Below are positions 18,001-21,000 of a DNA stretch of 42,050 nt, in pieces. The stretch's first letter is position 1. Each line of letters starts with the position of its first letter. This DNA comes from a virus. Taxonomy: Duplodnaviria; Heunggongvirae; Uroviricota; Caudoviricetes. The DNA lies in the IMG/VR virus record IMGVR_UViG_2718218402_000004, positions 1 through 42,050 of that record; one strand, written 5' to 3'. The position numbers were made by a program.

Positions 18001-21000
18001 GTCGAAAAATGGGTGGATGGCAGGAAAAAAATACTGTGGGACAGCAAAAAGCGACGCAATGAGGCGCTCGACTGCTTCGTTTATGCGCTGGCGGCGCTGC
18101 GCATCAGTATTTCCCGCTGGCAGCTGGATCTCAGTGCACTGCTGGCGAGCCTGCAGGAAGAGGATGGTGCAGCAACCAACAAGAAAACACTGGCAGATTA
18201 CGCCCGTGCCTTATCCGGAGAGGATGAATGACGCGACAGGAAGAACTTGCCGCTGCCCGTACGGCACTGCATGACCTGATGACAGGTAAACGGGTGGCAA
18301 CAGTACAGAAAGACGGACGGCGAGTGGAGTTTACGGCCACTTCCGTGTCTGACCTGAAAAAATACATTGCGGAGCTGGAAGGTGCAGACCGGCATGACAC
18401 AGCGACGCAGGGGACCTGCAGGATTTTATGTATGAAAACGCCCACCATTCCCACCCTTCTGGGACCGGACGGCATGACATCGCTGCGTGAATATGCCGGT
18501 TATCACGGCGGTGGCAGCGGATTTGGTGGGCAGTTGCGGGCGTGGAACCCACCGGGTGAAAGTGTGGATGCAGCCCTGCTGCCCAACTTTACCCGTGGCA
18601 ATGCCCGCGCAGACGATCTGGTACGCAATAACGGCTATGCTGCCAACGCCATCCAGCTGCATCAGGATCATATCGTCGGGTCTTTTTTCCGGCTCAGTCA
18701 TCGCCCAAGCTGGCGCTATCTGGGCATCGGGGAGGAAGAAGCCCGTGCCTTTTCCCGCGAGGTTGAAGCGGCATGGAAAGAGTTTGCCGAGGATGACTGC
18801 TGCTGCATTGACGTTGAGCGAAAACGCACGTTTACCATGATGATTCGGGAAGGTGTGGCCATGCACGCCTTTAACGGTGAACTGTTCGTTCAGGCCACCT
18901 GGGATACCAGTTCGTCGCGGCTGTTCCGGACACAGTTCCGGATGGTCAGCCCGAAGCGCATCAGCAACCCGAACAATACCGGCGATAGCCGGAACTGCCG
19001 TGCCGGTGTGCAGATTAATGACAGCGGTGCGGCGCTGGGATATTACGTCAGCGAGGACGGGTATCCTGGCTGGATGCCGCAGAAATGGACATGGATACCC
19101 CGTGAGTTACCCGGCGGGCGCGCCTCGTTCATTCACGTTTTTGAACCCGTGGAGGACGGGCAGACTCGCGGTGCAAATGTGTTTTACAGCGTGATGGAGC
19201 AGATGAAGATGCTCGACACGCTGCAGAACACGCAGCTGCAGAGCGCCATTGTGAAGGCGATGTATGCCGCCACCATTGAGAGTGAGCTGGATACGCAGTC
19301 AGCGATGGATTTTATTCTGGGCGCGAACAGTCAGGAGCAGCGAGAAAGGCTGACGGGCTGGATTGGTGAAATTGCCGCGTATTACGCCGCAGCGCCGGTC
19401 CGGCTGGGAGGCGCAAAAGTGCCACACCTGATGCCAGGTGACTCACTGAACCTGCAGACGGCTCAGGACACGGATAACGGCTACTCCGTGTTTGAGCAGT
19501 CACTGTTGCGGTATATCGCTGCCGGGCTGGGTGTCTCGTATGAGCAGCTTTCCCGGAATTACGCCCAGATGAGCTACTCCACGGCACGGGCCAGTGCGAA
19601 CGAGTCGTGGGCGTACTTTATGGGGCGGCGAAAATTCGTCGCATCCCGTCAGGCGAGCCAGATGTTTCTGTGCTGGCTTGAAGAGGCCATCGTTCGCCGC
19701 GTGGTGACGTTACCTTCAAAAGCGCGCTTCAGCTTTCAGGAAGCCCGCAGTGCCTGGGGGAACTGCGACTGGATAGGCTCCGGTCGTATGGCCATCGATG
19801 GTCTGAAAGAAGTTCAGGAAGCGGTGATGCTGATAGAAGCCGGACTGAGCACCTACGAGAAAGAGTGCGCGAAACGCGGTGACGACTATCAGGAAATTTT
19901 TGCCCAGCAGGTCCGTGAAACGATGGAGCGCCGTGCAGCCGGTCTTAAACCGCCCGCCTGGGCGGCTGCGGCATTTGAATCCGGACTGCGACAATCAACA
20001 GAGGAGGAGAAGAGTGACAGCAGAGCTGCGTAATCTCCCGCATATTGCCAGCATGGCTTTTAATGAGCCGCTGATGCTTGAACCCGCCTATGCGCGGGTT
20101 TTCTTTTGTGCGCTTGCAGGCCAGCTTGGGATCAGTCGCCTGACGGATGCAGTATCCGGCGACAGCCTGACTGCCGGAGAGGCACCCGCGGCGCTGGCGT
20201 TATCCGGTGATGATGACGGACCACGACAGGCCCGCAGTTATCAGGTCATGAACGGCATCGCCGTGCTGCCGGTGTCCGGTACGCTGGTCAGCCGGACGCG
20301 GGCGCTGCAGCCGTATTCGGGAATGACCGGTTACAACGGCATTATCGCTCGTCTGCAACAGGCTGCCAGCGATCCGATGGTGGACGGCATTCTGCTCGAT
20401 ATGGACACACCGGGCGGGATGGTGGCGGGAGCATTTGACTGTGCTGACATCATCGCCCGTGTGCGTGACATAAAGCCGGTATGGGCGCTGGCCAACGACA
20501 TGAACTGCAGTGCAGGTCAGCTGCTTGCCAGCGCCGCCTCCCGGCGTCTGGTCACGCAGACCGCCCGGACAGGCTCCATCGGCGTCATGATGGCTCACAG
20601 TAATTACGGCGCTGCGCTGGAGAAACAGGGCGTGGAAATCACGCTGATTTACAGCGGCAGCCATAAGGTGGATGGCAACCCCTACAGCCATCTACCGGGT
20701 GATGTCCGGGAGACACTGCAGTCCCGGATGGATGCAACCCGCCGGATGTTTGCGCAGAAGGTGTCGGCATATACCGGCCTGTCCGTGCAGGCTGTGCTGG
20801 ATACCGAGGCTGCAGTGTACAGCGGTCAGGAGGCCATTGATGCCGGACTGGCTGATGAACTTGTCAACAGCACCGATGCGATCACCGTTATGCGTGATGC
20901 ACTGGATGCACGTAAATCCCGTCTCTCAGGAGGGCGAATGACCAAAGAGACTCAATCAACAACTGTTTCAGCCACTGCTTCGCAGGCTGACGTTACTGAC

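Follow-up and report, generated by a model that had tools for sequence, protein, structure and literature searches.

A single-base insertion in the head-tail adaptor gene W of a rearranged lambda-like prophage remnant, probably a recent pseudogenisation

In lambda, the genes A, W, B and C follow one another in the late region, and W (Ad1, 68 aa; NC_001416 2633-2839) and B (533 aa; 2836-4437) are translated as separate polypeptides, the stop codon of the first overlapping the start codon of the second in the sequence ATGA. The window considered here comprises the whole 42,050 nucleotides (positions 1 to 42,050) of the IMG/VR record IMGVR_UViG_2718218402_000004. In it the same A-W-B-C order is kept, with about 98% DNA identity to lambda and the same ATGA overlap sequence. 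Nevertheless, unlike lambda and all the relatives found, the window carries an extra base at codon 51/52 of W, and W is read into B: the ORF list gives at this place a single plus-strand reading frame, 18228..20033, of 601 amino acids, as an earlier note made from the same DNA had claimed. The question that this locus raises is whether an adaptor and a portal protein have been joined into a working polypeptide, whether W has been lost by mutation, or whether the joined frame was created during sequencing and assembly.

The composition of the frame can be stated simply. Lambda W supplies the first 51 codons; 17 codons out of frame come next, and then the complete 533-aa portal protein B, which starts at M69 (ATG 18432). 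The first part (18228..18380, + strand), delimited by translation, Pfam and tblastn, keeps the native W frame, covers helix 1, the beta-hairpin and most of helix 2 of gpW, and shows a single substitution with respect to lambda (A12T). The second part (18381..18431, +) occupies, according to the translation, the place of gpW residues 52-68 as an accidental linker; read in frame 2, this DNA still gives the 17 residues expected of W. The original W stop (the TGA of ATGA, 18434..18436, +), located by alignment and by repair of the frame, is now out of frame and read through. When lambda W is used as a tblastn query, the match is split between frame 3 (aa 1-51, 18228-18380, with 98% identity) and frame 1 (aa 44-68, 18358-18432), a pattern typical of a frameshift; the same search gave no second copy of W within the window.

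Alignment of the W/B DNA with lambda NC_001416 and five relatives reduces the difference to one extra base, CTGGA-AG-GTG, at 18378-18383. The site of the insertion, according to the alignments and to in silico repair, is AAGG at 18379..18382 (+), which corresponds to AG in the relatives, read either as GAA GTG (lambda, SC434, FHI_NMBU_03) or as GAG GTG (19KM2326N, phiSTEC1575-Stx2k). Since both alleles occur in relatives, the inserted base could be either a G or an A. Indeed, in silico removal of A18379 or of G18381 gives in each case a 68-aa W that ends in GPAGFYV and a stop, the TGA of which overlaps the ATG of B in the canonical ATGA. Translation, alignment and tblastn thus agree with the earlier note in that the first 51 residues are those of lambda W and the frame then departs. 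Comparison with the lambda W/B sequence also shows that the note is right on the lambda W C-terminus and on the overlap of the W stop with the B start. Its proposal that deleting one g of gaaggtgcag restores W and the overlap of its stop with the B start holds for G18381, but the extra base may also be an A, as the deletion of A18379 works just as well.

Relative to intact and widespread homologues, then, the W reading frame is disrupted, and what is taken away by the disruption is well defined. gpW is built of a bundle of helices (at positions 4-22 and 37-54) and of a C-arm (residues 55-68) that attaches to residues 320-324 of the portal through beta-sheet augmentation (PMC10721106). The unstructured C-terminal tail is reported as critical for connector assembly (PMC3208555, citing Maxwell et al. 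2000), and the C-arm includes three C-terminal residues needed for activity (role of the C-arm: PMC10721106, PMC3208555). Furthermore, W and nu1 are listed among the essential genes of lambda (PMC10695390, Table 1). In the window, the frameshift at codon 52 costs the protein its entire C-arm and the last part of helix 2, with out-of-frame sequence in place of residues 52-68. Consistently, in the 601-aa polypeptide Pfam recognizes positions 1-50 of the 66 of the gpW profile (PF02831), vs 1-66 for lambda W, in addition to a full Phage_portal_2 domain. A separate gpW of about 68 aa whose stop overlaps the portal start is therefore absent; the gene still lies between A and B, with its stop out of frame. 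Because the portal-docking C-arm is gone, W activity is predicted to be lost, and the allele to be a null. Filled heads would then be unable to attach FII or tails unless another source provided W. Near-identical morphogenetic genes are common to co-resident prophages and could complement in trans, and co-resident lambdoid prophages have been reported to complement each other's morphogenesis defects (PMC2669165).

The portal gene (18432..20033, +), on the other hand, is intact and, as in lambda, of full length and with the same start context. Its 533-aa product matches, at 100% identity, a widespread allele that occurs in 8420 blocks of a public protein collection, and covers positions 2-354 of the 354 of the Phage_portal_2 profile (PF05136, E=1.5e-96). 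Among the loci shown with this same B allele, 8/8 have a separate 68-aa gpW gene upstream, with the 4-nt overlap. The ribosome-binding region of B (18420..18434, +), defined by sequence reading and alignment, is composed of AGGA at 18420-18423, an 8-nt spacer and the ATG at 18432-18434, and is the same as in lambda. B thus has, by its sequence, a translation start of its own, and since this region is unchanged, translation of native gpB can still begin here. Ribosomes that started at the W ATG would fail to stop at the ATGA overlap and run into B, giving a 601-aa W'-linker-B polypeptide, and those that start at the B ATG would still make native gpB. The N-terminus of gpB is removed during assembly (PMC3224144), and given that its 21-22 N-terminal residues are normally lost, any fusion that reached a prohead might be cut back to mature B*. 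The expectation of the earlier note, that W would be made as a W-B fusion or would not function, is correct in that W codons 1-51 are in frame with B, but the fusion would not be the sole product.

All of the 80 matching phage records cover the query, and among the matches listed, for these records as for the E. coli genomes, 280 record bases stand against 281 query bases. In complete E. coli genomes, which carry up to 5 copies of the W region each, no exact match exists among 4539 places in 3204 genomes, the best one (99.3%) showing the gap and one mismatch. An exact 30-mer containing the extra base has no match in IMG/VR, in the GTDB representatives (one genome per species) or in JGI metagenomes, and the exact 601-aa fusion is absent from a collection of 15 billion proteins. 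Exact-protein look-ups of A and J of the window also gave no match in the protein collection. Given that the extra base occurs in no homologue found, it would be a private lesion, and neither a conserved architecture nor a recoding site.

The existence of a conserved W-portal fusion family was considered and rejected, as the first 120 aa gave only a handful of singleton fusions when compared with a database of 5.8 billion proteins. These singletons (P0001-P0004) carry other frameshifts, namely a T deletion in a TTTT run before the W stop, and then more frameshifts in B. Since such fusions appear only as singletons with other frameshifts, the architecture is not conserved, and they would be sporadic accidents or errors.

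In the A-W-B stretch, eight private substitutions were found against about 20 references. Six of these are synonymous, which argues that purifying selection acted on the head module until recently. Had private indels near W outnumbered the substitutions, this would have been a sign of error; they do not, as A-B holds eight substitutions and one indel, a proportion that can be taken as unremarkable. Substitutions in FI that had seemed private, and that had been read as a sign of relaxed selection, were withdrawn, the FI allele being a common one (1512 blocks).

The W lesion has to be seen in its genomic context, which is not that of an intact prophage. The window is made of two lambda-like late regions in a head-to-head arrangement. 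The left arm (1 to ~15908, - strand) carries nleH, tail fibre genes, lom, J ... H ... V, Z, FII, FI and then a 5'-truncated capsid gene E, from which about 54 codons are missing. The right arm (15909 to ~38700, + strand) carries nu1', A, W'-B, C, D, E ... J, lom, stf and tfa, and is followed by cif and nleG-type effector genes. Directly upstream of W, the gene for the terminase large subunit A (16306..18231, +, 641 aa) is intact in the ORF list and has 98-99% DNA identity to relatives. The gene for the small terminase subunit, nu1 (15909..16331, +), is 5'-truncated and begins at lambda coordinate 314: in blastn, lambda 1-720 matches only over 314-720. The window lacks lambda coordinates 1-313, and with them cos, for which it has no match, and codons 1-41 of nu1. 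These codons encode the start of the N-terminal region of Nu1, which forms its DNA-binding domain. With cos and a whole Nu1 missing, the right-arm element should be unable to package its own DNA, and the prophage should be dead whatever the state of W. In a prophage that is already non-viable, the W lesion would change little biologically.

The illegitimate junction that joins the left late region (-, inside the capsid gene E) to the right one (+, inside nu1) lies at 15905..15911, as deduced from comparison with both parental-type sequences. No IS element lies there, and microhomology amounts to 3 nt at most. The E. coli matches to the right arm all begin at 15909-15912, no complete E. coli genome spans the E'/nu1' junction, and a 41-mer of the junction is unmatched in the GTDB representatives, JGI metagenomes and IMG/VR. 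Both parental-type prophages occur in E. coli 19KM2326N, each of them complete and oriented like the other, with ~0.43 Mb between them, and the junction looks like either one end of an illegitimate inversion (~0.43-0.44 Mb, relative to 19KM2326N) or an assembly chimera. This head-to-head fusion at ~15908 is a more unusual feature of the window than the W frameshift.

The possibility that the entire window is a foldback or palindromic assembly artefact was considered and rejected, as identity between the arms is only 76-100% and they correspond to two different 19KM2326N prophages. The same genome proved unsuitable as a clean comparator for the left arm, having frameshifts of its own in nleH, a tail fibre gene, K, FI and A. 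Between the two arms, the K-I-J(5') segment (~5600-8400 vs ~29400-32200) is nearly identical, including a 1166-nt block at 100%, and the rest is 76-98% identical, which suggests recent gene conversion or a module shared between the two prophages.

Moreover, W is not the only gene with a private indel, defined as an uncompensated 1-bp indel absent from several comparison references. In lom of the right arm (ORF 34552-35118), a change from GG to GGG at 35095 gives 188 aa instead of 199 aa and leaves the Lom/Ail outer-membrane protein with a shortened or scrambled C-terminal strand. This insertion is absent in L003, L020, L022 and L025, of which L022, a draft contig, shows 0 substitutions over 7.18 kb against the window. 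In K of the left arm, A becomes AA at 7534 (202 aa instead of 247 aa), and in J of the same arm GG becomes G at 6369, splitting the gene into the ORFs 6711..6268 and 6361..3299; both sites fall within a stretch that is ~99.8-100% identical between the arms. The homopolymers of at least 7 nt that were checked inside genes (C7 in nleH, A7 in A, C8 and A7 in cif) leave the ORFs intact. Independent inactivating lesions are thus present in the same element, with the 5' end of nu1 and cos lost and lom shifted, and in the adjoining arm, where E is truncated and K and J are frameshifted.

With this evidence at hand, we consider it probable that in this lambda-like cif/nleG prophage remnant the head-tail adaptor gene W was inactivated by the recent insertion of one base at codon 51/52 (A to AA or G to GG), in other words, that the locus reflects recent pseudogenisation. 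The lesion would carry no selective cost, since the element would not be able to package its own DNA. The base looks real in so far as the long homopolymers checked in genes are correct and the element is grossly rearranged and bears other lesions, with a natural local substitution pattern; multiple defects are, furthermore, the rule in lambdoid prophages of attaching/effacing E. coli (PMC2669165). Against a real base, it must be considered that the rest of the head module is intact and looks as if under purifying selection, and that the head-to-head junction which kills the prophage could itself be an assembly chimera.

It is possible, although we hold this only tentatively, that the true W is an intact gene of 68 aa and that the base was added in consensus calling or polishing, for example where near-identical head modules and multi-mapping reads led to both Glu51 alleles (A and G) being written. 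The insertion, unique among all the homologues searched, falls on the only A/G polymorphic site of the stretch, and GA-A-G-GTG reads as both alleles in tandem, as a consensus of collapsed paralogues might; the up to five W-region copies per E. coli genome would offer the material for it. The window holds four private 1-bp indels, two of which (K 7534 and J 6369) lie precisely in the nearly identical stretch of the arms, where polishing is weakest. The absence of the lom insertion from L022 also fits, as differences consisting only of indels are typical of errors, and so do the sporadic W-B "fusions" with further frameshifts in other assemblies (P0001-P0004). Nevertheless, platform indel errors should strike first the homopolymers of at least 7 nt, and those checked leave their ORFs intact; the private indel is not out of proportion to the eight private, mostly synonymous substitutions of A-W-B; and in an element so grossly rearranged, decay is to be expected.

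Recent pseudogenisation, our preferred reading, leaves room for a further one that we regard as unlikely, in which the base is real and the 601-aa W'-linker-B is made, forms portal rings and is cut down to normal B* by the prohead protease. In that case co-resident lambdoid prophages would still receive working portals or proheads from the remnant, which would itself lack W. If this were true, it would constitute a natural demonstration that the lambda portal tolerates an N-terminal extension of 68 residues.

The joining of two adjacent late-operon frames into one polypeptide is in itself reminiscent of the programmed -1 frameshift of lambda G-T, which serves the tail assembly chaperones. Its heptamer GGGAAAG is conserved where gene G ends in each arm of the window (25702-25708, +, and 12103-12109, -) and shows what a genuine programmed site of this operon looks like. 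Unlike it, the W/B join is an insertion at the DNA level, with neither a slippery site nor conservation: sequence reading gave no X XXY YYZ heptamer and no known +1 motif at 18370-18431, the out-of-frame stretch 18381-18431 included, and no homologue was found in which the frame change is conserved. Recoding, be it by +1 frameshifting or by transcriptional slippage at the A6 run that lies ~20 nt upstream (18355-18360), was therefore rejected, and slippage at this run would, besides, garble seven codons of helix 2. Hence, although the fusion is in frame over all its 601 codons, it is very improbable that W'-B is a selected, working adaptor-portal protein, or that W is restored by recoding, as exactly the portal-docking part of gpW that activity requires is lost, no DNA match carries the extra base, the loci shown keep a separate W with its ATGA overlap (8/8), and the other W-B fusions of the databases are singletons with extra frameshifts.

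The element resembles the defective prophages of attaching/effacing E. coli, such as the Sp pool of O157 Sakai (PMC2669165), in its lambda-like late region, its cargo of type III secretion effectors (cif, nleG-type, nleH) and its several lesions in morphogenesis and packaging. It departs from the known defective prophages in the W +1 insertion and in the head-to-head E'/nu1' junction, which were not seen elsewhere. For a defective lambdoid prophage that carries effectors, a pseudogene created by a frameshift, or an error in the consensus, is an ordinary and well-known situation, and the W frameshift has little importance beyond annotation. From this perspective, the 601-aa ORF should be annotated as a frameshifted W pseudogene and an intact portal gene in a non-packaging remnant, and not as a novel adaptor-portal fusion. 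Positions 18379-18382, 6369, 7534 and 35095 should be flagged as doubtful for any conclusion on the viability of the prophage in the strain.

Some other features of the window deserve mention. The effector cargo is found at both outer ends, with nleH at 1-891 (-) on one side, and cif at 39121-39969 and the nleG-type gene at 40837-41469 on the other. Between the latter two lies the remnant of an integrase, of 123 aa (40073-40444, -). cif is intact here (282 aa) and is frameshifted in the close relatives SC434 and L022 (A7 vs A6 at 39932). Finally, a long collagen-like tract of Gly-X-Y repeats is present in the left-arm tail-fibre protein (1260-2570, -), which at 436 aa falls far short of the Stf of the right arm (946 aa, 35211-38051).
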